Assembly: GCA_045539655.1 (NCBI GenBank)
Contig: JAZQFT010000010.1
Span: 10,884 to 74,883, forward strand
Direction of reading: 5' to 3'
Source of the DNA: Ruminococcus sp.
Lineage (GTDB): Bacteria; Bacillota; Clostridia; Oscillospirales; Acutalibacteraceae
Length of the DNA: 64,000 nt
This document shows positions 28,839-45,187 of this stretch, in pieces; within the stretch, counting starts at the first letter, position 1, and each line of letters begins with the position of its first letter. Under the pieces are notes generated by a model, which saw only the letters and a program-made list of their open reading frames with translations, was not told where the DNA came from and made no database searches. A program made the position numbers and the translations under genes.

Positions 28839-28895
28839 AATAAATACTCCTAACTAAGAATAATGTTACAAACAAAAATATATATTGTACAAAGG

Positions 28896-29138
28896 TCAGA
28901 TTTCCTTGAGTTCATTGATGCATTTTTCGCAGATGGTTTTGTCCTTGAATCTGACAAGGTCATCGTCGCTACCACAAAAAGCACAAGTCATACAATACTT
29001 TTTCATCAGAATGCCATCAGCCTCGTTGAAGAGCTCAAGGCTGTCACCAAGTTCCAGTTCGTATTTTTTGCGGATAGGTTTTGGGATAACAATACGTCCG
29101 AGTTGGTCGATTTTCAGTATAAAGCCTGCCGGTTTCAT
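28896..29138 (-). CDS. abrB: AbrB-family transcription regulator with C-terminal CxxC..CxxC
   Basis: KIDQLGRIVIPKPIRKK..GDSLE; clostridial-type zinc-ribbon tail. Confidence 0.88.
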   Translation of the reverse strand: MKPAGFILKIDQLGRIVIPKPIRKKYELELGDSLELFNEADGILMKKYCMTCAFCGSDDDLVRFKDKTICEKCINELKEI

Positions 29139-29255
29139 ATGTTTGATCCTCCCTTTTTTATTTCAATTTCATTCTATCAAATGCTGACAGTGGTGTCAAT
29201 GCTTTTTTGACAAAAATATAGCGAATTCGATAAAATCTGATAAAATTAACAAAAG

Positions 29256-31745: not shown

Positions 31746-31824
31746 TTTATCTGTCCTAACATAAAGTGTTACTATATCATACCCTGAAAACAAAGTTTTT
31801 ATAGAAATTTTAAGAAATTTTTCT

Positions 31825-31852
31825 AAAAGTTGCATAGTTTTATGCAACTTTT
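31825..31852. promoter_or_regulatory. Perfect 12-bp inverted repeat upstream of the particle operon (operator or attenuator)
   Basis: AAAAGTTGCATA-gttt-TATGCAACTTTT followed by a T-rich tract, 47 nt before the terS start. Confidence 0.6.
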
Positions 31853-31899
31853 TTCATTTTTTCAGGTTTAAGTGAAACCAGTTTGAAAGGAATGATACT

Positions 31900-32403
31900 T
31901 TGAAGAATAAGGATAGTGGGCTTACTCAGCGTGAAAAACTGTTCTGTGTATGTTTTGCAAGCACTGCAGACATAGAACACTCAGCAAAGTGCGCCGGGTA
32001 CGACAAAGAGCCACTGAAAAAAGGACAAGCGTTGTTATTAAAACCTGAGGTTGCTGACGAAATAGTGTCGCTTTCCAAAAACCGAGAGCGTGCTATGAGT
32101 GAGGTGACACAGCTTTTTTATGAGAGGCTGGCGTTTGGGAGCATAGCAGATGCAGTGAGCCTTTTGTATATGGACTCTCCCACAAAAGAACAGTTGAGCA
32201 AAATGGATCTGTATATGGTTCAGGAAATCAAAAAGCCAAAGGACGGTGCAATGGAGATAAAGTTTTTTGACAGACTCAAAGCGCTGGAGAAAATAGCTCA
32301 AAGCAGAGAGGATACAAAACAAGTGAGCAGCTCGCTCGTTGAGGCTTTGTATCAGGGCGCACAAAAAATAAGTGATTGTGCGGGTGAGAGCATTGAGCTA
32401 TAA
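31900..32403 (+). CDS. Terminase small subunit
   Basis: LTQREKLFC..SAKCAGY..GQALLLKPEV is the HTH pattern of phage TerS; AAAGGA RBS with TTG start. Confidence 0.8.
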   Translation: MKNKDSGLTQREKLFCVCFASTADIEHSAKCAGYDKEPLKKGQALLLKPEVADEIVSLSKNRERAMSEVTQLFYERLAFGSIADAVSLLYMDSPTKEQLSKMDLYMVQEIKKPKDGAMEIKFFDRLKALEKIAQSREDTKQVSSSLVEALYQGAQKISDCAGESIEL

Positions 32404-33646
32404 ACCTTTTTCAAAAAAGCAGATGCTCGCACTCACATGGTGGATGGAAAATTCGAAGTACAAAAGCTGCGACGCTGTGATCTGTGACGGGGCTGTCAGA
32501 TCAGGCAAGACTTTCTGTATGTCGCTGTCGTTTGTGCTGTGGGCATTCTCAGCCTTTTCTGATTCGTCTTTTGCGTTGTGTGGAAAAACTATACGCTCAC
32601 TAAGGCGAAATCTTGTCACTGAGCTTATTTCTCCGCTTTCTGAGCTTGGCTTTGAAATCACTGACAAACACAGCGAAAATATGCTGATTCTAAGCTACCA
32701 CAACAGAGTTAACCGCTTTTATCTTTTTGGTGGCAAGGACGAGGGGTCTGCCTCGCTGATTCAGGGTATGACGTTGTGTGGGATTTTGCTTGATGAGGTA
32801 GCGCTGATGCCACGGTCTTTTGTCGAGCAGGCCTTGGCACGTTGCTCAGTATCAGGCTCTACTTTTTGGTTCAACTGTAATCCTGAGTATCCGTCCCACT
32901 GGTTTTATAATGAGTGGATAAAAAAAGCAAAACAAAAGAACGCTTTGTATATCCATTTCACAATGCAGGACAACCCATCTCTTTCCAAAAAGATGATAAA
33001 ACGCTACGAAAAAATGTATTCGGGTGCGTTTTTCAGACGCTTTGTGAAAGGTGAGTGGGTTGCAGTCAACGGTGCTGTGTATCCGTTTATGGAGCACAGC
33101 GATGCGTTCCCTGATGTTCCAAAAGGCGACTTCGAGAGTTATGCGGTGTCGTGTGACTATGGCACCGTGAACCCTGCGTCGTTTGGGCTATGGGGAAAGA
33201 AAAACGATGTGTGGTACAGGATTGATGAGTATTATTTTGACTCAAAAAAAGAGGGCTACCAACGCACAGACGAAGAGCATTACAACGCATTGTGTGAGCT
33301 CATAGGTAGCAAAGAAGTTTCTCTCATAGCAGTAGACCCGTCAGCGGCAAGCTTTATTGAGGTAATCAAAAGGCACGAAGAATTTAGCGTAGTGCCAGCA
33401 CAAAACAACGTTATCGACGGAATACGCTGTGTGAGCTCAGCTTTAAAAGATAAACGAATCATCATATGTAACAACTGCAAAGCATCGATAAGAGAGTTCT
33501 CCCTTTACAGATGGAGCGAAAACTCAAAAAACGATGCTGTAGTAAAACAAAATGACCACGCTATGGATGACATAAGATATTTTGTCACCACGATTATGAA
33601 CGGCGAGGACGACTCTTTTGTCGCTCTGGCTGCAAAAAGATATTAG
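32372..33646 (+). CDS. Terminase large subunit (PBSX-like)
   Basis: Walker A DGAVRSGKT, Walker B LLDE, coupling motif NCNP; nuclease acidic residues in CDYG, VDPS and NDHAMD. Confidence 0.92.
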   Translation: MIVRVRALSYKPFSKKQMLALTWWMENSKYKSCDAVICDGAVRSGKTFCMSLSFVLWAFSAFSDSSFALCGKTIRSLRRNLVTELISPLSELGFEITDKHSENMLILSYHNRVNRFYLFGGKDEGSASLIQGMTLCGILLDEVALMPRSFVEQALARCSVSGSTFWFNCNPEYPSHWFYNEWIKKAKQKNALYIHFTMQDNPSLSKKMIKRYEKMYSGAFFRRFVKGEWVAVNGAVYPFMEHSDAFPDVPKGDFESYAVSCDYGTVNPASFGLWGKKNDVWYRIDEYYFDSKKEGYQRTDEEHYNALCELIGSKEVSLIAVDPSAASFIEVIKRHEEFSVVPAQNNVIDGIRCVSSALKDKRIIICNNCKASIREFSLYRWSENSKNDAVVKQNDHAMDDIRYFVTTIMNGEDDSFVALAAKRY

Positions 33647-33665
33647 TGCCACAGGAGGTAATATA

Positions 33666-34820
33666 TTGAAATTATTTTCTGCAAAAAAGAAAAGCACAGC
33701 AGATGCTACAGTACAGACCTCTCTGTCGAGTACAAACTCCCATCCGTTTTATTCGCTTGATAACTACAACCCGTACTGTGAAAAGCAACTTGAGCTGTAC
33801 AGCTCTTTGCGTGAAGCGGTGCCGGTCATCGATGCGGCTATATCAAAGCTCATAAGGCTTATAGGTACATTCACAGTACAGTGTGAGCAAAAACAGGCTC
33901 AAAAAGCGCTCGAGAGCTTTCTGAATAATGTGCAGGTAAACAACTGTTCATATGGTGTGATGAACTTTATCTACACTTATTTTGATCAGCTGCTCACATA
34001 CGGAACAGCAGTATCGGAGATAGTGCTGTCAAATGACAGAAAAAGTATCCGTGCGCTTTATAATGCGTCACTCAAAGATGTTGAGCTCAGACGTAGCAAA
34101 AACAATCTGGGTGTGACAGTGTGCGTCAAAAACGCTGACGGTACATTGAGTGAAGCAAAGTATCAGGATTTAATTTTTGTAGGGCTCTTGAATCCGACAC
34201 CAGGCACACTGCAGGGCACATCTATACTCAAGGGACTTCCGTTTGTAAGCTCTATATTGCTCAAGATTTTCAACACAATCGGTGTGAATTTTGAGCGTAT
34301 AGGTAACGTGAGATTTGCGGTCACATACAGACCGCCCGAAAACTCTCACGTCAGCACAAAACAGCGTGTACAGGAAATTGCAACCCAGTGGAGCAAAGCT
34401 ATGCGTGACAAAACTCAGGTGAGCGACTTTGTGTCTGTGGGAGATGTATCGGTGAAGGTCATCGGTGCGGATAATCAGGTGCTCTCGTGTGATATCGAGA
34501 TTCGACATCTACTCGAACAGATAGTATCAAAGCTGTGCATACCTCCGTTTTTGTTGGGCCTTTCGTGGAGCTCAACCGAGCGAATGAGTGCTCAACAGGC
34601 GGATATTTTGACAAGTGAGCTTGAGTATTACAGAACTCTCATTAACCCGCTTATCACAAAGATTTGCAGATACTTTTTGAGACTCAACGGCTATAGTGAC
34701 GAGTTTTCTATCAACTGGAGCAACATCAGTCTTTTAGACGAAACAGAGCTCGCACAAGCGAGACTTCACAATGCTCAGGCAAAACAGATTGAATCTACAC
34801 TTGCGGAGGTGAAAGATTGA
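33666..34820 (+). CDS. Portal protein
   Basis: Position after terL; ~385 aa; LYSSLREAVPVIDAAI..L, IPPFLLG and LEYYR..I.P.I patterns. Start after AGGAGG at 33666. Confidence 0.8.
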   Translation: MKLFSAKKKSTADATVQTSLSSTNSHPFYSLDNYNPYCEKQLELYSSLREAVPVIDAAISKLIRLIGTFTVQCEQKQAQKALESFLNNVQVNNCSYGVMNFIYTYFDQLLTYGTAVSEIVLSNDRKSIRALYNASLKDVELRRSKNNLGVTVCVKNADGTLSEAKYQDLIFVGLLNPTPGTLQGTSILKGLPFVSSILLKIFNTIGVNFERIGNVRFAVTYRPPENSHVSTKQRVQEIATQWSKAMRDKTQVSDFVSVGDVSVKVIGADNQVLSCDIEIRHLLEQIVSKLCIPPFLLGLSWSSTERMSAQQADILTSELEYYRTLINPLITKICRYFLRLNGYSDEFSINWSNISLLDETELAQARLHNAQAKQIESTLAEVKD

Positions 34821-35806
34821 AAACAGGCAAAGTGATAAAATGTGCTGACACATCAGTCAGCGAAAACGACCTAAGTTTAATCAACAAATACACTCGCAGA
34901 GAGCTCACAGCACAAGACGTGTATGTGTTTTCTGTAGTGCTGTGTGATAACGATATTGACAGAGATTTCGAACGATTCACTGTCGAATCGCTCTTTGAAC
35001 TGGAAAAGCTTTTTGTCGGAAAAACAGGTATTTTCGACCACAACCCGAGTGCAACTAACCAGACAGCACGAATTTTTTCTTGTAAGGTTGAGCACGTTGA
35101 GGGCAAAAAAACCGCAACAGGCGATGATTATTTCCGCCTTGTTGCAAAAGCATATATACCAAAAAGCGAAGGAAATACTGACATTATTCTGAGCCTTGAC
35201 TCCGGCATCATCAAGGAGGTCAGTGTCGGCTGTGCAGTGAAGAGCACGCTGTGCTCAATTTGTTCCAACGACATTTCTTCAACGATGTGCCATCACGTGA
35301 AAGGAAAAGAGTATCACAAGAAGCTATGCTACGGAGAGCTGGACGGTGTTATAGATGCATATGAGTTCAGCTTTGTAGCAGTACCGGCGCAGAAAAACGC
35401 AGGTGTAATCAAGGCTTTCTCAGAAAGCAAAAGGGAGAATAAAAATATGAAGGACATACTTGTAGCAATAAAAAAGGGCGAAGACGTGACACTCAAATCA
35501 CATCAGTCAAAAAGCCTGTGCGAATATATCGCTCAGCTTGAAGAAAAAGCGAAAGACGGCGAGCTCTATAAAGAGAATCTCAAAAAAAGCGTTGTCAGGC
35601 TGATGGGTGTTTTTCAGCCGAATATTTCGACAGATACTTTACACAGCATTGTCGAAAAGCTGACTGTACAGGAACTTTCAACGCTGAAAGAAGCGTACAA
35701 AGAGTCAGCCACCCAATGCGAAAAAATCGCCCCACAGCTCGGTGTTAGCGAAAGCTCAAAAGATGCTGTGAAAAAATCTGATAAAAACAATCAGTTTACT
35801 ATTTAA
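34817..35806 (+). CDS. Prohead protease fused to C-terminal coiled-coil scaffold
   Basis: DIDRDFERF, FDHN (His), KEVSVG (Ser) and YEFSFVAVPAQ motifs; helical C-terminus. Confidence 0.75.
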   Translation: MKTGKVIKCADTSVSENDLSLINKYTRRELTAQDVYVFSVVLCDNDIDRDFERFTVESLFELEKLFVGKTGIFDHNPSATNQTARIFSCKVEHVEGKKTATGDDYFRLVAKAYIPKSEGNTDIILSLDSGIIKEVSVGCAVKSTLCSICSNDISSTMCHHVKGKEYHKKLCYGELDGVIDAYEFSFVAVPAQKNAGVIKAFSESKRENKNMKDILVAIKKGEDVTLKSHQSKSLCEYIAQLEEKAKDGELYKENLKKSVVRLMGVFQPNISTDTLHSIVEKLTVQELSTLKEAYKESATQCEKIAPQLGVSESSKDAVKKSDKNNQFTI

Positions 35807-35818
35807 CAGGAGGAAATT

Positions 35819-36154
35819 ATGAATATCAATTTTTCAGGTTATAACGAAAACGTAGTCACCTTTGAAGTAGCAGGAACAGATGTTACTATGGGCACACCCG
35901 TCAAGATGAGCTCGTCTGCTACTGTTACAAAGTGTAGCGACGGTGACAATATGATAGGTGTAGCGGTGAATGTACGCAACGGTTACGCTGCGGTACAGCT
36001 CACAGGCTATATCGAAATGCCTACAGAAGACACAATCTCAGTCGGCTACCAGACTCTTTCTGTAAACGAAAATGGTACGGTAGAAGTGAGTTCAACAGGC
36101 AGAGAGTACCTTGTTACTTATGCACAGCAGGGTATCGTAGGCTTTATTCTTTAA
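35819..36154 (+). CDS. Head decoration/cement protein (DUF2190-like)
   Basis: 111 aa beta-rich ORF between protease and capsid (G.PVKM...V......IGVA....G.AAVQL.G). Confidence 0.6.
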   Translation: MNINFSGYNENVVTFEVAGTDVTMGTPVKMSSSATVTKCSDGDNMIGVAVNVRNGYAAVQLTGYIEMPTEDTISVGYQTLSVNENGTVEVSSTGREYLVTYAQQGIVGFIL

Positions 36155-36174
36155 TTTGAAAGGAAGGAAAAACA

Positions 36175-37185
36175 ATGGCATTATACGAAAATCTAAACCT
36201 TGAAAAAGGTATGTATCAGGCTAAGGGCAAATCTTTGACTGACGTGCTCGAAGCCCTAGACCCATCTGATAACTATGTGGGTACACCGCTTGAAAATCTG
36301 GACGCTTTTTCTCGTCAGCTCAAGCGTTTTGACATCAAAGTATCAGGAGAGGGCTCGGACTGTGTTGAAAAGTTCTTCCAGTCATCAAACTCAGCAGCGC
36401 TTTTTCCTGAATATGTTTCCCGTGCTGTAAAGCAGGGTATGCAAGACGCTGACATCCTCTCTGACATTGTAGCAACTGTTACAACAATCGACGGTATGGA
36501 CTACAGATCTATCACATCTGATCCTGCTGAAGACGACAAGTCGCTCGCTGTTGTAAACGAGGGTGCATACATTCCACAGACAGTTGTGAAAACAAACGAA
36601 AATCTCGTCAAGCTCCACAAACGAGGCAGAATGCTCGTGTCATCATACGAAGCACTCCGTTTTCAGCGACTTGACCTTTTCACAGTAACACTCAAGCAGA
36701 TTGGTGCATATATTGCCAGAGCACAGCTCAAAGATGCAGTTGACACTATCCTAAACGGTGATGGCAACAACAATGCGTGCGGTTCTATCGAGAGTGCGAC
36801 CGCTGACAAACTAGAATATGCTGATCTCATTTCACTTTGGGCAACTCTTTCTCCGTATCAGCTCAACACTGTCTTGGCACCAACAGATGCTATGAAAAAG
36901 ATTTTGTCCCTTGCTGAGATGAAAGATGCTGCTGCAGGACTCAACTTCCAGGGTAGCGGAAAGATGGTCACACCACTGGGTGCCAACCTCTTGCACACAA
37001 ATGCTATCACATCGGACCTCATCATCGGTCTTGACAAAAACTGTGCTCTTGAGATGGTGAAAGCGGGCGACGTTGTCACTGACTACGACAAGCTCATCGA
37101 CAGACAGCTTGAACGTGCAACTGTCAGCTGTATCGCAGGCTTTGCAAAGATTTTCAAAGACGCATCAGTGAAGCTTACATACTAA
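36175..37185 (+). CDS. Major capsid protein (HK97 fold)
   Basis: 336 aa after a strong RBS; V.EG..IP, K.GR....SYE.L, ..I..Q..RA...A..TI.NGDG and DKLIDRQ patterns. Confidence 0.82.
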   Translation: MALYENLNLEKGMYQAKGKSLTDVLEALDPSDNYVGTPLENLDAFSRQLKRFDIKVSGEGSDCVEKFFQSSNSAALFPEYVSRAVKQGMQDADILSDIVATVTTIDGMDYRSITSDPAEDDKSLAVVNEGAYIPQTVVKTNENLVKLHKRGRMLVSSYEALRFQRLDLFTVTLKQIGAYIARAQLKDAVDTILNGDGNNNACGSIESATADKLEYADLISLWATLSPYQLNTVLAPTDAMKKILSLAEMKDAAAGLNFQGSGKMVTPLGANLLHTNAITSDLIIGLDKNCALEMVKAGDVVTDYDKLIDRQLERATVSCIAGFAKIFKDASVKLTY

Positions 37186-37191
37186 AGGCAG

Positions 37192-37563
37192 GTGGACACC
37201 TTGAGTTTAAAAGATGTGCTGGACAGATTTGCTCTGGTGTCAGGCCTTGAGCAAGAAGAAATTTCCAAGTGGATTTTTGTTATCACTGACTGCATAAAAT
37301 ACTTTGAGAGCAGGCTCAATACAAAATCACTCAGCGACGTTCAGAAAAGAAGACTCACACACGCGTGTGCGGTGTATTCGTACTATAAGTACACGCTGAT
37401 GACCTTTGCATCAAAAAGTGCGAAATTCAAAGCGGGTGACATCGAAATCACACACAGCGAAAATATGCTTGATTATGCCCACTCGATGTGGCAACAGGAG
37501 AAAAGCGAGATCGTCGATATCATTGATTTTGACGACTTTTGTTTTTGCAGGGTGAGAGTATGA
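37192..37563 (+). CDS. Head-tail connector (adaptor)
   Basis: Helical 123 aa immediately after the capsid gene; GDIEI motif; assigned mainly by synteny. Confidence 0.55.
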   Translation: MDTLSLKDVLDRFALVSGLEQEEISKWIFVITDCIKYFESRLNTKSLSDVQKRRLTHACAVYSYYKYTLMTFASKSAKFKAGDIEITHSENMLDYAHSMWQQEKSEIVDIIDFDDFCFCRVRV

Positions 37564-37919
37564 GCTTTCATAAAAGTGTAAAAAACCTCATAGAAAACTA
37601 TGGTAGCGATGTCACCATAAAAAGAGACGAAACTTCGGTGCACACAAAAGCGTTTATTCAGCCGCTGAGGTATAAAAACAACGTTAGTAACGATATATCT
37701 ATTACTATGGGTGGTTTTTCGGACGGAAGATATTACCTGTATATCGGAAAGGCAGAAAATGAATTTATCAGAGCAGATGATGCAATAATTTTATGTAACG
37801 GTAGAAAATATACTGTACATACAAGCGAAAGATTTGAGCTGTATGACAAGGTACTCTATGTGTGGGCGGTGCTAAAACCGTACAAAAGTCTGAGGAGCGA
37901 TGATTTTGAAACAAATTGA
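37560..37919 (+). CDS. Head closure protein
   Basis: Beta-rich ~120 aa (AFIQPL..YLYIG..D.I...G.KY.V..YVWAVL); synteny. Confidence 0.5.
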   Translation: MSFHKSVKNLIENYGSDVTIKRDETSVHTKAFIQPLRYKNNVSNDISITMGGFSDGRYYLYIGKAENEFIRADDAIILCNGRKYTVHTSERFELYDKVLYVWAVLKPYKSLRSDDFETN

Positions 37920-38343
37920 AGACTATATCAATGAGCTGATGCTCAAAATAAAGAAAGATGACTCGCTGTCACAATATTGCTTTGTGAAAGGGTTTTCGGC
38001 ACGTGAGTTTCCTAATCCGCTGACAGATTACGTGATAGCGGTTTCAACGCTCGATACTCAGGTCGGCGTTGAGTTTTTTGGAGAAACTGTGGGAGATAAT
38101 CTTTGTGGCAGTATGTATAATGCGACGCTTAAATTCAGGGTGTATGCTCAAAAAAACGAGGGTGGCGAGGGGCTTTTGGCCCTCGCACACACCTTGTGTG
38201 AGGCACTCAAGAAAAACGATAGCGAAAATACGATACAAAACATCACCACATCATCAATATCCTTTGATAATGATGCTATGACCGTGTACAGAGATGTTGT
38301 TGCAGAGCTTTCGTTTTGTCTTTATGAGGAGGTTACAGTATGA
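37900..38343 (+). CDS. Tail terminator/completion protein
   Basis: 147 aa; synteny between neck and tube genes. Confidence 0.5.
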   Translation: MILKQIEDYINELMLKIKKDDSLSQYCFVKGFSAREFPNPLTDYVIAVSTLDTQVGVEFFGETVGDNLCGSMYNATLKFRVYAQKNEGGEGLLALAHTLCEALKKNDSENTIQNITTSSISFDNDAMTVYRDVVAELSFCLYEEVTV

Positions 38344-38723
38344 ATACGCTGAGAATTCTGAAAGGTAAGGATATCACTATTTCAGTAGATGGCACGGTGC
38401 TGTGCTTTGTGACAGATTTTGTCGCACAAGAAAGTGAAGAAAGATACGAAATAAAGGAGTTTCTGAGTAGCGAGCCTGTGGACAGCGTGGAGCTCAAAAA
38501 AAGCTATGAGCTCAAAATCACAGCACTCACACATTTCAATAAAAAAGTGTTTGAAAAACAGCCTTTTACGCTGAGAGTGTGCGATGGAGATACTGAGTAT
38601 GAGTACATTTCATGTCGACTCAAAAACAGTGTTCGTGACGTGAATGCGAGCAAGACTATCGTTGATAAATACACTATAGTTGCGCAGGATATGAAGGTGT
38701 TGGAGGGTCAGTATGAGCGATAA
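38340..38723 (+). CDS. Tail tube protein (XkdM/contractile-tube-like)
   Basis: 127 aa; GKDITISVDG..EIKEF..YELKIT..FTL..Y..C pattern resembling PBSX XkdM-type tubes; synteny. Confidence 0.55.
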   Translation: MNTLRILKGKDITISVDGTVLCFVTDFVAQESEERYEIKEFLSSEPVDSVELKKSYELKITALTHFNKKVFEKQPFTLRVCDGDTEYEYISCRLKNSVRDVNASKTIVDKYTIVAQDMKVLEGQYER

Positions 38724-38865
38724 TATAGAAAACATACTGGTAAAAGAAAAGGCGGATGTGCTCAGTAGCTTTGATTCGGTTTATAGCATAATGGAAATGT
38801 TTGAGCGTGATGCTCGTCGTTTCAACAGGGCGTTTTCTGAAGAAAAAGAGGTGAGCGTAAAATGA
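38713..38865 (+). CDS. 50-aa ORF in the tape-measure position (not in ORF track)
   Basis: MSDNIENILVKEKADVLSSFDSVYSIMEMFERDARRFNRAFSEEKEVSVK; GGAGG RBS; overlaps both neighbours (ATGA coupling with 38862). Confidence 0.7.
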   Translation: MSDNIENILVKEKADVLSSFDSVYSIMEMFERDARRFNRAFSEEKEVSVK

Positions 38866-39380
38866 AGCTTGTTCCAATGAGATTTATGGGATATATGTGG
38901 CATCACAACCCTAAGTCGCTCAATATAGAAAGCGACAAAAAGGTCGTGAGGCTGAGCGTTCCGTACAGCTTTGATATTGTTCAGAATTTTGGCGAGAGCC
39001 CTGTGAAGATAACAGGCACAGGTGAGCTGTATTCTAAAGACTGTTTGAGTCAGTTTGAACGGCTCAATGAGCTGTTCAAAAAGGGTGAGTGCGGTGTTTT
39101 GTGTTTGCCGGGGGTTTCGCCGATGTATGCGTGTTTTGACACACTGACTTTGATAGCACAGCCGACACCTGATGTGCTTACATATAGCTTTTCTTTTACT
39201 CAGGTAAAAAGAAGACCCAAGTGTGATGGTGTTACACGATATGCAGATGCCGGCGCATATCGCTCGCTATGGGAGGTTGCACGAGATTATAACGCAGATA
39301 TTAAAACGTTGATAAAGCTCAATCCTCATATTATGTTTATCAACGATTTGTCAGACGCAGAAAGGGTGAGAGTATGCTGA
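38862..39380 (+). CDS. Baseplate tube-initiator (Mu gp43/DNA_circ_N-like) with C-terminal LysM
   Basis: N-terminal MRF.GY.W.HNP; C-terminal SLWEVARDYN..I..L..LNP.I LysM pattern. Confidence 0.65.
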   Translation: MKLVPMRFMGYMWHHNPKSLNIESDKKVVRLSVPYSFDIVQNFGESPVKITGTGELYSKDCLSQFERLNELFKKGECGVLCLPGVSPMYACFDTLTLIAQPTPDVLTYSFSFTQVKRRPKCDGVTRYADAGAYRSLWEVARDYNADIKTLIKLNPHIMFINDLSDAERVRVC

Positions 39381-40303
39381 GATTTGAATTCACTGATATT
39401 TATGACAAGGTAGTTACTTTGAAAAATCCGCTTTCGCTGGTTATCAACATTGAAGAAGATGTTCCCGCAGATGATATGACGGTTGTTTTTGAGTATTTCG
39501 AGACCTCTGAGCTCAAAGAGGTCAGAGTTTTTGATGAAAACGAGGTAGTCTTTACGGGCGTTGTGGACGAAATCAGCAGCGTGTGTGATAGCACGGGCAG
39601 ACTCATGAAAATTGTGTGTCGCAGCATGGCCGCAAAGCTGCTAGATAATGAGAGTGTTCCTATCAGCTACAACAGACCAAGCGTGTCGGTCATTGCTACG
39701 AATCACATAAAACCGTTCGGACTTCTTTGTGCTAGCACAGAAGACACTACATATATTGGTACTCAGACCGTACCAAAAGGAGCGAGCAACTGGCAGGCGG
39801 TGTCGGATTTTTCGAAGAACGTGTATAGCACAGCGCCCAGGGTGAATGCCCGTGGTGAGGTTGAATTCTGTGATAAAAAGGATAAAGAGAAAGTCGTGTT
39901 TTCTAACAGCGAGGGTATCAGCTATATAAGCCTTACTGAAACCATAAAGCGATGTGAAGAAATTTCTAAAGTTTATATCAAGGTGATAAATTCATCAGGC
40001 TATAACAATACTATCGAAAACGCTGATGCACTCAAAAGAGGCATAGAGCGAGAGCGATATTTGAACGCTGTTATGACCGACACACCTGCTCAGTGTGCTG
40101 ACAAAATGATAAAAAATGGTCGGGATAAGTCGTATGTCGTGACACTTACTTGTGTGGGCAGACACCTGAATATATTTGCACATCCAGCTGTGGTGAAGGA
40201 TAAAAAGCTGTGCTTTGATGATTTGTACATCAGTGCTCTGAGATATCAGCTCAACTCAAAAAACGATGTGACTACAGTCACTCTCAAGAGAAAGGAAGTA
40301 TAG
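39374..40303 (+). CDS. Baseplate hub (Mu gp44/XkdQ-like)
   Basis: 309 aa; VVFTGVVDE...CRS.AAKLLDNE pattern; synteny. Confidence 0.65.
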   Translation: MLRFEFTDIYDKVVTLKNPLSLVINIEEDVPADDMTVVFEYFETSELKEVRVFDENEVVFTGVVDEISSVCDSTGRLMKIVCRSMAAKLLDNESVPISYNRPSVSVIATNHIKPFGLLCASTEDTTYIGTQTVPKGASNWQAVSDFSKNVYSTAPRVNARGEVEFCDKKDKEKVVFSNSEGISYISLTETIKRCEEISKVYIKVINSSGYNNTIENADALKRGIERERYLNAVMTDTPAQCADKMIKNGRDKSYVVTLTCVGRHLNIFAHPAVVKDKKLCFDDLYISALRYQLNSKNDVTTVTLKRKEV

Positions 40304-40304
40304 T

Positions 40305-40640
40305 ATGTGGCTACTTGATTATGTTACAAAAAACTCATTTCAAAAAGATGATATCAGTTGTGGCGATGTTACCTCGAGCAACATGGGTGTTGTTGCGGTC
40401 AACTCATCTCTTGAGCATCGTGATGTTCCCATTGTTGCACCGTTCGGGGTAGCGTACAATCCGCCGGTGGGAGAAAAGTCAGTGGTGCTACCGCTGCAAG
40501 ATGGCAGAGCGTGTGTCGGGGTTATCGCTCCGTATAAGATGCTCGAACCGGGCGAAGTGATGCTTTTTTCAAAAGGCGGTGCGTCGATAGTGCTGAAAAA
40601 CGACGGCACTGTACTCATAAACGGGAAGGTGTATGAGTAG
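40305..40640 (+). CDS. Baseplate spike (Mu gp45-like), short
   Basis: APFG...PPVGE..VVL..LEPGEV.LFS.GG..I.L..DG.V.ING. Confidence 0.7.
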   Translation: MWLLDYVTKNSFQKDDISCGDVTSSNMGVVAVNSSLEHRDVPIVAPFGVAYNPPVGEKSVVLPLQDGRACVGVIAPYKMLEPGEVMLFSKGGASIVLKNDGTVLINGKVYE

Positions 40641-40983
40641 TATGGATGTAAAAATAGAGAACAAGGATATAGCAACAGATAGCTGTTATTCTCCGCTTTA
40701 TATACAGGGCATCGAAGAAATAGCCCAGCGGGTAAAAATTGCGTGCACAATAAAAAAAGGCAGCTTTGTTTATGATGCTAACCTCGGCAGCTTTGCTCAC
40801 ACAGTTGATCTGAGTGATGATATGGCACAAGAAAAGCTCGAGATGATTTTCAAGGAAGCTACGATAGACATTCCATATACGACTCTCAGAATAACCAAAC
40901 TTGATAAAGGCAACAAAATAGCAGTGGTAGAAGTAGTGTGTGGTGAAGAAAGTGTATTGACGGAGGTGATTGTTGATGGATAG
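40633..40983 (+). CDS. Baseplate wedge gp25/gp46-like (XkdS-like)
   Basis: MDV.I..D..G.EE.AQRV.I....KGSFVYD..LGS. Confidence 0.65.
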   Translation: MSSMDVKIENKDIATDSCYSPLYIQGIEEIAQRVKIACTIKKGSFVYDANLGSFAHTVDLSDDMAQEKLEMIFKEATIDIPYTTLRITKLDKGNKIAVVEVVCGEESVLTEVIVDG

Positions 40984-42040
40984 CTACGAAGAAATACTTT
41001 CTAGAATGAAAAGTAAGTATGAAGAGCTTTCTCAAAGCAGTATCAGTGAAGAATCGGATATTATGCTAAGGCTCAAGGTGCTTTCTGCACAAGTGTACAA
41101 CAACCTTGTAGCACAAGAATTTTTGAAGCGTCAGATGTTTGCAACAACAGCGACAGGCGAGTATCTGGACAAGCATGCTATGGAGCGTGGACTTCAGCGT
41201 AAAGGTGCAGTGAAAGCTACAGGAGTGGTGACTTTCTGGGCTGATCAGGCACTTACAAACGACATATGGATACCAAAGGGTGTGGTAGTATCAACTAACG
41301 GACCTGATGTGAAAAAATTTGTGACTACCGAAGTAGCACTTCTGAATAAAAACGAGGTGTCAGTTATGGTTCCTGTAGAGGCCCAAGAGGGCGGTGAGGA
41401 CTACAACGTGGTGGCAAGTAGCGTCAAGGTGCTGGTGACTCCACCTGTTGGCATAACTTCTGTCACAAATAAAAAGGCGTTCACCGGTGGGCTGAACGCT
41501 GAAACTGATGAAGAGCTCAGAGAGCGTGTGCTGTATAGTTACAAAGATATTCCTAACGGCACTAACGAAGTGTACTACAGACGACTTGCGGAGTCGGTTT
41601 TGGGCGTGTATTCAGCGTCCGTTGTGTCACAACAGCGTGGCAGTGGCACAATAGACATCTATGTAAGTGGCAAAGGCGAAAAAGCAGGCAGTGAAGTGGT
41701 ATCAAAGGTTCAGAAGCTCATTGATGAAAACCGAGAGATAAACGTTGACGTGAAAGTCAGCGAGGCGACTGTTTCTGCTGTCAGCTACACGCTGGAGCTC
41801 ACTGTCGAAGACGGATACAGTTTTTCTTCTGTGTCAAACAAAGTGAAGGACAAGCTTTCTGAGTACATAATATCCTTAGGAATCTCAGAGCCTATTTTGC
41901 TCAGCGATCTGGGTGACATTGTTTATCACACACAGGGAGTGAAAAACTACAGCTTTGTGGACACGTTTAGCTATGATGTGTATCCGCACCAGAACGAACG
42001 ATGCGAAGTGGAAAGCATAGAGATTTGGCAGGTGAAATAA
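40970..42040 (+). CDS. Baseplate J/gp47 protein (XkdT-like)
   Basis: TATGEYLDKHA..RGLQRK.A, GG..AETDEELRER, GT....Y.., RGSGTIDIYV. Confidence 0.9.
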   Translation: MLMDSYEEILSRMKSKYEELSQSSISEESDIMLRLKVLSAQVYNNLVAQEFLKRQMFATTATGEYLDKHAMERGLQRKGAVKATGVVTFWADQALTNDIWIPKGVVVSTNGPDVKKFVTTEVALLNKNEVSVMVPVEAQEGGEDYNVVASSVKVLVTPPVGITSVTNKKAFTGGLNAETDEELRERVLYSYKDIPNGTNEVYYRRLAESVLGVYSASVVSQQRGSGTIDIYVSGKGEKAGSEVVSKVQKLIDENREINVDVKVSEATVSAVSYTLELTVEDGYSFSSVSNKVKDKLSEYIISLGISEPILLSDLGDIVYHTQGVKNYSFVDTFSYDVYPHQNERCEVESIEIWQVK

Positions 42041-42600
42041 TGGACACATATGTTTCGATGAAAGAAGCTCTGTATCCACTTGATATATATAGCTTTGATG
42101 ACACAAATATCTCATATGAGCTGATGGCGTACAGCGTGGTGCTCGATGAGCTCAACAGCGAGCTGTGCACTATGCTTTCAGAGTGTTTTGTGCAAAGCGC
42201 AAGTAGCTACGGATTGTCAGAGCGAGAGATTGTTGTCGGCGCACAAAGAGATGATTTGAGCATACAAGAGCGTCGTGAAATGCTAATGCTCAGAAACAGC
42301 CTTGATAACAACAGCTTTACTTTGTCAAAAATAAAAAATGCGCTGAAAAGTTTTGGCCTTTCTTGTAATGTGTATGAGTACCCAAATCAGTTTGTGATAG
42401 TTCTGGATGCGATAGGTACCTACAAAAGTGAGCAAAAGGCGTGGATACGAGCTGAAGTACAAAAAATTATGCCTGCTCACCTTCAGGTACAGGTCATTTT
42501 CGGCGGACCTTCGTGGGATACAATAGATCAAAATAACAACACCTACGCATATCTGGACTCAGTTGATATGACGTGGGACAGTATAGATAACTTAGAATAA
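42040..42600 (+). CDS. Baseplate wedge protein (DUF2313/YmfQ, gp48/XkdU-like)
   Basis: F...A...GL..RE, ..ERR..L, ..IMPAHL.V motif. Start at 42040. Confidence 0.8.
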   Translation: MDTYVSMKEALYPLDIYSFDDTNISYELMAYSVVLDELNSELCTMLSECFVQSASSYGLSEREIVVGAQRDDLSIQERREMLMLRNSLDNNSFTLSKIKNALKSFGLSCNVYEYPNQFVIVLDAIGTYKSEQKAWIRAEVQKIMPAHLQVQVIFGGPSWDTIDQNNNTYAYLDSVDMTWDSIDNLE

Positions 42601-42610
42601 GGAGGATGTT

Positions 42611-43078
42611 ATGGCTTCAACTTCATATACAAAAAATCTTGGGCTGTGTGCGTGGAACAGCTCGGACAGACCCAAGCGAATGGACTTTGTACAGGATAAT
42701 AATATCATTGACACAAAGCTCGGCGAGCATCTTGTGGACAGCTCAATTCACGTGACAGCAAAAGAAAAAGAAGCTATCGCTTCGCCGTATAAAGTGGTCA
42801 CTTATGTTGGTGACGGAAAAGCTCAAAAGACAATTTCGTTGGATAACAGCTATACGTATGCCATAGTGTTCCAGAAGTTTTACCCGCCTGTTGAAATGGA
42901 TGCAAGTGGAAACGCAGTGACACGTTTTGCTGTTGTAGGCAGGGTGTTCGGCTCCAATGCTGATGTTGTGCTGAAAAGCGATTCGATTGTTGTTGTGCAA
43001 GGGGCATCAGTAACACAGGGTATGATAAATAATTTTAACGAAGAAGAGGGACAGTATGTGATCTTGCTGTTCAAGTGA
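42611..43078 (+). CDS. Short tail fibre / receptor-binding-like protein
   Basis: N-terminal T.NLGL..W...D.....DF..N..IID..L is a common fibre-anchoring motif; last gene of the operon. Confidence 0.55.
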   Translation: MASTSYTKNLGLCAWNSSDRPKRMDFVQDNNIIDTKLGEHLVDSSIHVTAKEKEAIASPYKVVTYVGDGKAQKTISLDNSYTYAIVFQKFYPPVEMDASGNAVTRFAVVGRVFGSNADVVLKSDSIVVVQGASVTQGMINNFNEEEGQYVILLFK

Positions 43079-43087
43079 TAAAAACAA

Positions 43088-43116
43088 AAAAGCACCTACC
43101 GTTTTGGTAGGTGCTT
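43088..43116. terminator. Terminator closing the particle operon
   Basis: AAGCACCTACC-gtttt-GGTAGGTGCTT between convergent genes. Confidence 0.8.
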
Positions 43117-43123
43117 TGTGCTT

Positions 43124-43978
43124 TTAGTGACGTGAAACGTATCTTCTAGGAAGATCTATTTCAGCGGTGTCAGCTTTGTAGCGCTTTCTTTGAGAGTAAG
43201 GTGTGTTGGAGCTTGAGTAACGCTTTCTCTGGTAGTGCTTGTTGTAGTCACTTTGAGTAGGAAAGTCAGAAAAGTCACCGTAGTCGTCTCTTGGACGCTC
43301 GTGCTCACGTCGACGCTGTCTTTGTTCTCTCATTTTCAGGGCTTTGAGCTTTTTCTTGTATGTAGCTGTGGCAATGATGAAATACAAAATGCCAATCAGC
43401 GACAGTCCGATGAGGATAAGACCGGTGTAGATGATCCACTGACCGTTGTCGTCTGCTTCTTTGTTTTCTTTGATAGCAGAAAAGTCGGCGGTATCACTTT
43501 CGGCTTTGGAAGTATCCAGAACAATATCGTCCCACTTGGACTCTTTGAGTTCTTCTTTGTCCAAGGTGGAGGTATCGTACAAGTCTGTGTAGTCGGAAAC
43601 GCTACCTGCTGTGTCTTCGAGGTTATTGACCATCTCGTCCTCATCATAGTAGTAGTAACCGTCTTCGTTAGTGTAAGAGTCGACATAACCGCCTGTTGTA
43701 GGTTCTTCGATATATCCGGCGTTTTCGTCGATGGTTGGCTCGACGTAAGTGTCGTCGTAATCGCTTTCAGGTGCCTGTGTAGCAGGCTCAGGCTCAACAA
43801 CCGGTGCTTCAGTCGCTACAGGAACCTCAGGTTCCGGCGCCGGAGAAGAGGTCGGAATCACAGCCGGAGGATTCGGGTCCGGAGTTACTTCGCCTGTGGC
43901 ATTTGCTGTGAGCGAGAACACACATATGCTTAGTATGAGTGCAGTGATTACACAGAGTATTCTGATTATTCTATTCAC
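43124..43978 (-). CDS. Single-pass membrane protein with acidic Pro-rich disordered ectodomain
   Basis: Signal peptide, P/E/D/Y-rich region, TM helix WIIYTGLILIGLSLIGILYFII, basic cytoplasmic tail. Confidence 0.7.
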   Translation of the reverse strand: MNRIIRILCVITALILSICVFSLTANATGEVTPDPNPPAVIPTSSPAPEPEVPVATEAPVVEPEPATQAPESDYDDTYVEPTIDENAGYIEEPTTGGYVDSYTNEDGYYYYDEDEMVNNLEDTAGSVSDYTDLYDTSTLDKEELKESKWDDIVLDTSKAESDTADFSAIKENKEADDNGQWIIYTGLILIGLSLIGILYFIIATATYKKKLKALKMREQRQRRREHERPRDDYGDFSDFPTQSDYNKHYQRKRYSSSNTPYSQRKRYKADTAEIDLPRRYVSRH

Positions 43979-44032
43979 AATATCACTCCCTGTTTAAAGT
44001 GTGCAGTTTGTGTAAAAATATGAGTCGGGTTA

Positions 44033-45187
44033 TTATGCCTCAAACATTTCCGGACTGTACTTTTTAACAGCACGGCTGATTGTGATATCAAGCTCGTTAG
44101 CAAGATTTTCGATGTAAGAAGTGAACTCTTCACCCTTGAAGCTCTGTAGTACAGATTTTCTGTTAGCTTCGTCTTCGATGTAGTTCTTAGTTTGCTCTTT
44201 GATAGCTTCTTTGTAGAAGAAGTAGATAACCTGTGAGTCTTCTTCGCCGATGATTTCATAAGATGCAGTGTTTTCATCGAGCTTTTCGATGGCTACTACG
44301 AGATCTTCGCCGATAGCGCTGTCAGCCATGATCTCGACATTAGATGTGCCCTGCTCGCCCTCGAGGTTGTTATCCTTTGCGTAAGTATCGAGTACGTCTT
44401 TGATGTCGCCACCGTTGTTGATGGTGTCAACATAGCTCTGGTACTGGTCTTTCTTATTGCTGATCTCTTTCTTTGAGAGAGCCTTGTTGGAAGACAGTGC
44501 ATCGCCTTCTTCAGAAGTTTCTTCTACAGTTTCGTAGAGGTTTGTATTGAAGTATGTGTAGCTTGTGTAGTTTTGTTCGAAGTACTCTGTGAGCTCTTTG
44601 TCAGAAACAGCCTTTTCGCCGTCTTTGCCATAGAGCATGTCAAATACGATTTCCTGCTTAGCAGAAGTGATGTAGAAGTATTTGAAAGAGTCGTATGAAA
44701 CGCCGAGTGGCTCGAAGATGTCCTTGTAAGGGTTGATGTACTGTTCGCCGTACATTGAGTAGTATGGGCCGTACTCCCAGTACTCTTTTGCAGAAGCTTC
44801 GTAGCCCTGCTGTGTAGCTTCGTCGATAGTAGCACCAAGTCTGTTGAATTCGTGCTCAACAGCGAGAAGGTTCTTCACAGTAGCGTCAGCCTGATCAGCG
44901 ATCCACTGGTCAGCAGTAGCTGTGACGCCGTCTTCGTCAGTGATCTGAACATCGAGGAAAGACTTGTCGCCGTCGTATGTGCCGGCCTCTGAGTCATAGC
45001 CTTCTGTTTGCTGTGCAAGTGATTCAGCCTGTGAGTATGCTGTGTACAAAGCATAGATGTAAACGCCGATAGCAAGCTCAGTATCATCAGTTTTGTATGA
45101 ATACTGAGGTGTGAGTGAACATGCTGCTGTTGAAAGTGCGATAACAAAAACAAGAATTACCGCAAGAAGTTTAGTAAAGTTTTTCAT
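44033..45187 (-). CDS. Lipoprotein, probably PrsA/SurA-like foldase
   Basis: Lipobox TAAC; helical; position downstream of mfd as is common in Clostridia. Confidence 0.6.
   Translation of the reverse strand: MKNFTKLLAVILVFVIALSTAACSLTPQYSYKTDDTELAIGVYIYALYTAYSQAESLAQQTEGYDSEAGTYDGDKSFLDVQITDEDGVTATADQWIADQADATVKNLLAVEHEFNRLGATIDEATQQGYEASAKEYWEYGPYYSMYGEQYINPYKDIFEPLGVSYDSFKYFYITSAKQEIVFDMLYGKDGEKAVSDKELTEYFEQNYTSYTYFNTNLYETVEETSEEGDALSSNKALSKKEISNKKDQYQSYVDTINNGGDIKDVLDTYAKDNNLEGEQGTSNVEIMADSAIGEDLVVAIEKLDENTASYEIIGEEDSQVIYFFYKEAIKEQTKNYIEDEANRKSVLQSFKGEEFTSYIENLANELDITISRAVKKYSPEMFEA

Follow-up and report, generated by a model that had tools for sequence, protein, structure and literature searches.

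The described systems that resemble the locus reported here are PBSX, the gene transfer agents (GTAs) RcGTA and FpGTA, and the R-type tailocins diffocin and monocin. The locus lies at positions 31900-43078 of a 64,000-nucleotide stretch of a Ruminococcus sp. genome (contig JAZQFT010000010.1), hereafter the window, and comprises 18 intact forward-strand open reading frames (ORFs). We favor, with moderate confidence, the interpretation that these genes form the main operon of a domesticated two-locus particle system of the PBSX lineage that packages host DNA in a GTA- or PBSX-like manner. Genuine transfer of the DNA, taken as part of that confidence, has overall somewhat less than an even chance. 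The broader claim of a functional domesticated particle system is very likely correct. The host is placed in the Ruminococcus bromii group because genes for dockerin and CBM26 proteins occur elsewhere in the window.

PBSX packages host DNA and is not known to transfer it. Like PBSX, the element is chromosomal and non-replicating, and its release by lysis, as in PBSX, is predicted from its genes. The large terminase subunit (TerL) belongs to the TIGR01547 family, and the head module is of the HK97 type (TIGR01554), as in PBSX. We take the PBSX gene order to be terS-terL-portal-protease/scaffold-capsid-neck-tube-LysM(XkdP)-hub(XkdQ)-spike(XkdR)-W(XkdS)-J(XkdT)-I(XkdU), followed by fibers and xhlA-holin-lysin, and the order here matches it. 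Read in sequence, the two loci are presumably colinear with the PBSX late operon (xtmA-xkdU, xkdV-xlyA), minus xkdK and xkdO. PBSX has a sheath (XkdK) and a tape measure (XkdO), whereas this element has neither, and PBSX measures roughly 28 kb, whereas both loci here total ~14.5 kb. The element also differs in being divided between two loci that each carry a copy of one promoter element, in having a CHAP-type endolysin rather than an amidase, and in being fixed across a whole genus, with relatives across the order. No Xre- or Xpf-type regulator was recognized next to either locus; beyond these neighborhoods the search was not exhaustive.

Diffocin and monocin share related tube and terminator folds and a baseplate module with the element, and the sheath found in relatives of the element matches the diffocin sheath and an XkdK-like sheath. 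However, R-type tailocins have no head, terminase, or portal; the element has all three and lacks a sheath. RcGTA is similar in being a domesticated cluster of head and tail genes that has no replication or integration functions and is vertically inherited under purifying selection. It also has dispersed fiber and lysis loci under common host control, as is probable here. It belongs to an unrelated lineage in Alphaproteobacteria (Rhodobacterales) and has a siphovirus-type tail with a tape measure. Its small terminase subunit (TerS) has no DNA-binding domain, whereas TerS here has a helix-turn-helix (HTH), and no counterpart of its regulators CtrA and GafA was identified here. Intact temperate prophages encode lysogeny, replication, and a complete tail contiguous with the virion genes, which is not the arrangement seen here.

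GTA-type packaging of 4.6-8.9-kb host DNA was recently reported in Ruminococcaceae, Oscillospiraceae, and Christensenellaceae, in several cases without an assigned locus (PMC12946183; Nat Commun 2026). The same study defines FpGTA of Faecalibacterium prausnitzii, which has a head and packaging operon I of about 10-11 kb, defined at 10.5 kb, and an operon II of 3-5.5 kb that encodes baseplate, fiber/receptor-binding protein, holin, and endolysin (PMC12946183). FpGTA is supported by transmission electron microscopy, ~8.5-kb DNA, and proteomics, whereas the particle here is predicted from sequence, and the R. bromii group is not mentioned there as a GTA producer (PMC12946183). Both systems have a gut Oscillospirales host, a bipartite layout, near-ubiquity in their genus, and little or no visible tail, a stub being predicted here. 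In FpGTA, the capsid carries an N4-gp56-family annotation, the element as a whole is called podovirus-like, and there are 10 ORFs; here there are 18 ORFs with an HK97/TIGR01554 capsid and a PBSX-family TerL, and a myovirus-type baseplate sits inside the main operon rather than in operon II. Homology to FpGTA was considered and rejected on annotated capsid family, N4-gp56 (Table S2, PMC12946183) versus HK97, the sole model that the capsid here matches. No description of this element was found in the literature searched. A preliminary description of the window had suggested a possibly undescribed GTA family; the concept was already published in 2026 as FpGTA, and the part that stands is the different capsid family and architecture.

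Gene content and tail architecture of the operon

The ORFs overlap or lie a few bases apart (mostly ≤~20 bp), and family searches place many of them in packaging, head, and baseplate roles. The features are as follows (dN/dS, ratio of nonsynonymous to synonymous substitution; pLDDT, predicted local distance difference test).

31822..31880, + strand: promoter/operator element upstream of terS, with palindrome TTGCATA-GTTT-TATGCAA (31830-31847), T-tract, AGGTTTAAGTG
31900..32403, + strand: TerS (g01), N-terminal HTH retained; Pfam Terminase_2 2.8e-12, phrog_2606
32372..33646, + strand: TerL (g02), PBSX family; NCBIfam TIGR01547 199 bits (cut-off 105), Pfam Terminase_6N
33618..34820, + strand: portal (g03); phrog_30703 1e-120, Pfam Phage_portal
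34817..35806, + strand: probable prohead protease-scaffold fusion (g04), 329 aa; phrog_16951 3.5e-94, function unknown
35819..36154, + strand: decoration/cement-like head protein (g05); phrog_4588 4e-15, weak Pfam Phage_cement_2 match
36175..37185, + strand: major capsid protein (g06), HK97 type; phrog_3922 1e-98, Pfam Phage_capsid_4
37192..37563, + strand: putative head-tail adaptor by position (g07); dN/dS 0.07, no family match
37539..37919, + strand: putative head closure/neck protein by position (g08); dN/dS 0.08, no family match
37900..38343, + strand: tail terminator with lambda gpU-like fold (g09); AlphaFold pLDDT 83, Foldseek lambda gpU 5e-6
38340..38723, + strand: tail tube protein (g10); AlphaFold pLDDT 83, Foldseek E down to 6e-8
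38713..38865, + strand: 50-aa protein in the chaperone/tape-measure slot (g11); dN/dS 0.31
38862..39380, + strand: N-terminal domain plus C-terminal LysM (g12); alignment profile versus PDB LysM domains 7e-9
39374..40303, + strand: baseplate hub (g13); phrog_177 baseplate hub 3e-12
40305..40640, + strand: central spike, Mu gp45-like (g14); weak Pfam Phage_Mu_Gp45 match, phrog_25991
40633..40983, + strand: gp25/W-like baseplate wedge of the 'sheath initiator' family (g15); phrog_120 6e-7
40970..42040, + strand: Baseplate J (g16); Pfam Baseplate_J 5e-48, phrog_6 8e-60
42001..42600, + strand: Mu gp48/P2 gpI-like baseplate protein (g17); Pfam Phage_Mu_Gp48 1e-10, phrog_521
42611..43078, + strand: putative short fiber-like protein (g18); conserved N-terminus TxNLxLxxWxxSDxPKRxDFxxDNxIID
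43089-43117, both strands: bidirectional intrinsic terminator closing the operon, 13-bp stem with T-runs on both strands

The preliminary description had counted 17 tightly coupled intact genes; the intactness and tight spacing stand, and the count rises to 18 with the conserved 50-aa ORF at 38713-38865. Its reading of TerL as having complete ATPase and nuclease motifs is borne out by Walker A (GAVRSGKT), Walker B (GILLDE), and three nuclease Asp motifs, and its single operon does end in a terminator. The HTH of TerS is of the SPP1/PBSX type. The g06 score against NCBIfam TIGR01554 is just over the cut-off. For g04, we found a weak match to a head maturation protease, invariant GIFDH and VSVG motifs, a Cys4/His insert, and a helical C-terminus; a sequence-profile search of the PDB gave no match. 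Its motifs suggest that it is probably a protease-scaffold fusion. The two neck proteins are conserved, g07 in size throughout the genus (117-125 aa) and g08 across 80 loci.

Sequence-profile searches of the PDB with g09 and g10 returned no matches, and both were resolved by Foldseek searches with AlphaFold models built on genus alignments. Via these models, g09 also matches myophage and diffocin terminators, and g10 matches the tubes of phage 812, monocin, diffocin, phiCD508, and Mu. The 50-aa g11 has a variable N-terminus and a conserved acidic/basic C-terminal motif, (E/Q)xDSRRYxRxLxEEEEAxLK; speculatively, it could be a vestigial or mini tape measure. The g12 protein is 170-173 aa long in 13 of 13 genus loci examined and occupies what we take to be the slot of PBSX XkdP and P2 gpX. 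A C-terminal repeat (GGASIVLKNDGxVxING) is conserved in g14, and the match of g15 to Pfam Sheath_initiator (1.7e-3) is below the cut-off. The N-terminal motif of g18 is presumably typical of fiber N-termini; this gene is missing from part of the genus.

An unusual feature of the operon is the lack of both a sheath and a tape measure. The interval between capsid and hub contains six small ORFs, none larger than 172 aa; no ORF there is large enough to be a sheath or tape-measure gene. The distance from the capsid stop to the start of the LysM gene is 1,528-1,741 bp in 74 related loci. In relatives from other families of the order, terminator and tube are separated by a gene of 344-371 aa, for which profile searches gave matches to the sheaths of pyocin R2, Mu, and diffocin and to an XkdK-like protein. 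This sheath hidden Markov model (HMM) matched none of the 12,345 six-frame ORFs of the window's genome, whereas the same HMM finds the sheath in other relatives. The lineage has a contractile-type baseplate and tube, without a sheath and without a ruler. The minimal tail of the preliminary description holds in this more specific form.

Host-type genes flank the operon directly, as had been noted. Upstream are xdhC, a deaminase gene, spmA/spmB, and a divergent GerA/SpoVAF-like gene, and downstream are two genes of unknown function followed by mfd, pth, and prs. No integrase, repressor, or replication gene was found at the locus, and comparison of the flanks revealed no attachment (att)-type direct repeats bracketing the cluster, in agreement with the first reading of the sequence. 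Nor were paralogues of the particle genes found elsewhere in the genome. The two downstream genes (43124-45187, minus strand) encode conserved proteins of 284 and 384 aa without a Pfam or NCBIfam match. They always follow mfd, even in genus members without the particle operon, and are therefore considered host genes rather than part of the element. Separately, a 115-aa ORF at 28863-29210, in the gap between the deaminase gene and spmA, has a dN/dS of ~3 at very low dS versus the closest species. This ORF is unlikely to be a real coding gene; the region may be conserved non-coding sequence.

A second operon and a shared promoter palindrome

The 136-bp intergenic region between the divergent GerA/SpoVAF-like gene and terS contains no regulator ORF. 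The element upstream of terS consists of a palindrome, then a T-tract, then AGGT(A/T)TA(A/G)G. The palindrome arms are invariant and the N4 spacer is variable in 20 aligned genus loci. The exact form TTGCATA-N4-TATGCAA occurs five times in the 1.78-Mb genome versus ~0.01 expected, and all five copies share the extended context. They head terS, a fiber-lysis operon, a winged helix-turn-helix (wHTH) gene, and two dockerin-protein loci. Across 41 searched genomes, the exact palindrome is confined to this genus, with 1-8 copies each in 16 of 24 genus genomes and none in 16 genomes of other families; a reversed control gave zero.

The second operon was identified on another contig.

G000:C36:107862-111035 (L238:3863-7035), outside the window: second operon, palindrome-headed, just downstream of uvrA
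Contents of the second operon: 353-aa fiber, 169-aa leucine-rich repeat protein, 64-aa ORF, 109-aa XhlA-like protein, holin, endolysin, terminator

The 109-aa XhlA-like 'hemolysin' matches phrog_937 (1e-14), the holin is r1t-type, and the endolysin combines CHAP and peptidoglycan-binding domains. The N-terminal ~140 aa of the 353-aa protein are conserved in 17 of 24 genus genomes, whereas homologues vary in the C-terminus and in length (273-732 aa). Based on this combination, we read it as a receptor-binding fiber. The palindrome lies immediately upstream of the fiber gene in at least nine relatives, the locus is syntenic next to uvrA in several species, and its genes are under purifying selection (dN/dS 0.02-0.44). 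The preliminary description had reported no lysis gene, which is true within the window and not of the genome, given the fiber/XhlA/holin/endolysin operon beside uvrA.

Regarding the nature of the element, a DNA operator is favored over an RNA hairpin because the palindrome arms show no compensatory changes, and the region has no Rfam match. It may instead function as a terminator/antiterminator. If TA(A/G)G serves as the -10 element, the center of the palindrome would lie ~41 bp upstream of the start site, a placement that would resemble that of a class II activator. A sporulation-sigma or sigma-70 promoter was considered, but inspection by eye revealed no convincing match and a sigma-70 scan was at chance level. 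Of a link to sporulation, only the adjacency to sporulation genes stands; a sporulation-sigma promoter was not recognized, and a dedicated lysis cassette exists.

The remaining palindrome copies lie outside the window. One, 4.7 kb upstream of the window start (G000:C10:6138-6640; L240), heads a gene for a 128-aa wHTH protein that resembles the N-terminal domain of phage DnaD-like or replication-initiator proteins and is patchily distributed. This gene was rejected as a conserved regulator, being found in only 4 of 24 relatives. The other two (G000:C15:41534, L241; G000:C16:56820, L239) lie in near-identical promoter regions of ~170 bp each. The C16 copy precedes a long leader and genes for dockerin-domain proteins (289 aa and 83 aa), and the C15 copy is ~500 bp from a contig end. 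The regulator that acts on the palindrome may also control cell-surface proteins of the amylosome type.

Fixation, selection, and relatives across the order

Of 24 genus species genomes, 21 carry the capsid gene, each as a single copy, at 71-93% identity. At least 585 species-representative genomes hold a relative of the cluster. The best 80 of these loci, all from 'Ruminococcus sp.'-type genomes of herbivore and human guts, including isolate YE282, were compared for colinearity, and all 80 are colinear from g01 to g17/18. The span from TerS to g17 is near-constant, at 10,482-10,859 bp in the 63 complete loci, and ORF lengths are near-invariant across genus loci. The position between gerA and mfd is common to many loci; others have lost one flank and kept the cluster.

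Versus the closest species, dN/dS of all 18 genes is 0.05-0.31, and their dS (0.44-1.3) is comparable with that of flanking host genes (0.56-0.91). Capsid identity correlates with identity at the unlinked UvrA (Spearman 0.69, p = 3e-4), and both markers pick out one set of five nearest species. The synteny and dN/dS comparisons had been proposed in the preliminary description; they reveal conserved order and no neutral decay, and the copy number and co-divergence with UvrA agree with its claim of vertical inheritance.

For the window's own species, a search of sequencing runs gave four gut metagenomes in which it has a low share, and no RNA. Evidence for expression comes from a congener with a closed genome (G002), via metatranscriptome contigs from four independent bovine studies. 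The orthologous operon is fully covered by these contigs at depths of 10-70, above some adjacent host genes, which supports transcription in vivo in this congener. Adjoining the particle operon of G002, the segment L022:3336-6670 reaches contig depths of 10^3 to 10^5 in each of the four bovine runs and probably holds a gene that is either very strongly expressed or widely conserved.

Across the order, 48 of 401 genomes and 34 of 179 genera have the capsid, always as one copy. Sheath-bearing, sheath-less, and head-only forms all occur. In one sheath-bearing relative from another family (L024; G032:C4), the cluster is again set directly among core housekeeping genes, here between rpoB-rpoC and dnaX-ybaB-recR, at a different chromosomal site and with no integrase. 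Five loci from other genera (L228, L231, L232, L236, and L224) encode TerS, TerL, portal, a g04-like protein, and capsid, and no baseplate homologue was detected nearby. The tail genes of such head-only relatives may be elsewhere or may have been lost.

Relatives among cultured phages were sought, but no cultured phage capsid reaches 30% identity. Matches at 60-72% capsid identity are unannotated fecal contigs labeled 'Bacteriophage sp.' One such record, MT835508.1 (L028; 'UNVERIFIED: Bacteriophage sp.', 46.7 kb), is in fact a piece of bacterial chromosome, apparently mislabeled as phage. The genes on its flanks share 50-80% identity with housekeeping genes of the window's genome, and the record holds only a related head module, from TerS to capsid and neck. 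IMG/VR lists hundreds of such regions as 10-12-kb 'proviruses.' A further IMG/VR group comprises L163/L165 (IMGVR_UViG_3300045988_165070) and sister contigs L134, L144, L149, L154, and L166, which are 56-114 kb long with a GC content of 32-36%. Their capsids are 67-72% identical to g06, and terminase, portal, and tail homologues were not detected. Among these contigs, one has an exact 12,132-bp periodic repeat and two have ~87-bp direct repeats 12.5-13.2 kb apart. Capsid neighbors in this group include ThiF, a reverse transcriptase, a DHHA1 protein, and Thg1.

Nature of the particle and alternative explanations

Domestication is strongly supported: the element is fixed and under selection, occurs as a single copy of invariant size, diverges together with its host, and is divided between loci that are probably co-regulated. 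The most plausible cargo is host DNA, given the lack of replication, integration, and immunity genes and the co-divergence with the host. How particles would assemble, what they would carry, how lysis would release them, and how the DNA would reach recipients are inferred as follows. Some host factor would switch on both palindrome promoters together in a subpopulation of cells. A DNA-filled HK97-type head would then be built with a pac-type TerS (via its HTH), a headful TerL of the PBSX family, and the portal, each particle taking up about a headful of DNA. The neck would carry a very short non-contractile tail composed of terminator, tube, LysM protein, hub, spike, and W/J/I baseplate. The second operon would add variable-tipped fibers to this stub tail, and its XhlA-like/holin/endolysin cassette would lyse the cell and free the particles.

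Several points weigh against packaging and delivery of host DNA as set out above. The direct evidence consists of genes, folds, and orthologue transcripts, from which particles, packaged DNA, and transfer are predictions. The expression data are contig depths from a related species, for which DNA carry-over is possible. Searches for the late activators ArpU and RinA yielded only sub-threshold matches, in open frames of 201-269 aa that we take, by size only, to be ordinary sigma factors. We know of no characterized precedent for a tube tail with neither tape measure nor sheath, and such a tail may not deliver DNA. TerS retains its HTH, so a site-specific start of packaging is possible, unlike for RcGTA TerS. 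The three most divergent genus members (G001, G006, and G019; Mfd 59-62% identical) lack capsid and TerL, although G001 keeps a motif-headed fiber-like gene. In these three genomes, which are 85-93% complete, mfd and the genes for the 384- and 284-aa proteins are followed by unrelated genes, a pattern that loss, later gain, or assembly gaps could each explain. Finally, in the one long-read study of virus-like particles found, the sole R. bromii bin listed was scored as a 37-kb prophage induction, not a GTA (Table S1, PMC12946183).

The alternative that fares best, although we regard it as unlikely, is a PBSX-like defective phage kept for programmed lysis (release of extracellular DNA or public goods) or for kin antagonism, whose packaged DNA is an undelivered by-product. 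The PBSX-family TerL fits this explanation, as does the presence of an XhlA-like protein, holin, and endolysin cassette. The variable fiber tip would suit strain-specific targeting, the non-transfer of DNA by PBSX itself counts in its favor, and the baseplate module fits what we take to be the XkdP-U order. However, killing in the manner of PBSX or R-type particles requires a contractile sheath, which is lacking in this genus, and we therefore disfavor such a role. F-type tailocins require a long tube and a tape measure, also lacking here. In addition, purifying selection on TerS, TerL, and portal is similar to that on flanking housekeeping genes, which is hard to explain if the DNA is irrelevant.

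A capsid-forming satellite of the phage-inducible chromosomal island (PICI) type, which would package itself and depend on a helper phage for missing tail parts or induction, is improbable. The compact size (~11 kb), own head and terminase, and incomplete tail are what such a satellite might present, the HTH of TerS allows pac-specific packaging, and the same promoter element heads the patchy, phage-type wHTH/DnaD-N gene. Yet there is no integrase, replication module, or att repeat, and the cluster is single-copy, syntenic, and co-diverging across the genus. Its own baseplate, tube, terminator, fiber, and lysis genes leave little to borrow. The preliminary description had held the element to be neither a tailocin nor a PICI, and the full head module, the missing integrase and replication module, and the lack of patchiness agree.

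Very improbable, and strongly disfavored, is a cryptic prophage remnant without particle function, kept by chance or for one or two exapted genes. Such a remnant could account for the lack of regulator and replication genes and for the 10-12-kb proviruses in IMG/VR, but not for 18 genes intact and under purifying selection in dozens of species with saturated synonymous divergence, for the invariant size, or for the conserved, probably co-regulated second locus. The least credible explanation, a complete temperate phage whose remainder was split off by misassembly, is conceivable for a 40-contig draft but already refuted, as the cluster sits in the interior of its contig, bordered by host genes at either end, has the same boundaries in the complete single-contig genomes of relatives G002 and G385, and has no sheath homologue anywhere in its genome.

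A wider proposition extends the favored interpretation of a domesticated particle system that packages host DNA, and we put it forward as tentative and rather doubtful. The operon would be a branch of an ancient, Oscillospirales-wide domesticated family of the PBSX lineage in progressive tail reduction, one that is behind the unassigned GTA-type packaging. Under this proposition, several families would have kept a short sheathed contractile tail, shorter or head-only forms would occur elsewhere, and in this genus a tube-plus-baseplate stub set by the 50-aa mini-ruler would deliver DNA by an undescribed mechanism.

Bacteria of the Ruminococcus bromii group are keystone degraders of resistant starch in human and herbivore guts. 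The architecture of the element, a myovirus-type baseplate and tube with neither sheath nor tape measure, is unusual, and its sheath-bearing and head-only relatives form a natural series on tail loss or minimization after domestication. The locus would extend Gram-positive GTA-like systems beyond PBSX and FpGTA. It would offer a defined locus with which to examine the GTA-type packaging lately observed in gut viromes, and the shared palindromic promoter provides an experimental handle on the controlling regulator. If the favored interpretation is correct, a genus-wide, host-controlled DNA-packaging particle would give these bacteria a built-in route of gene exchange or a form of programmed lysis.

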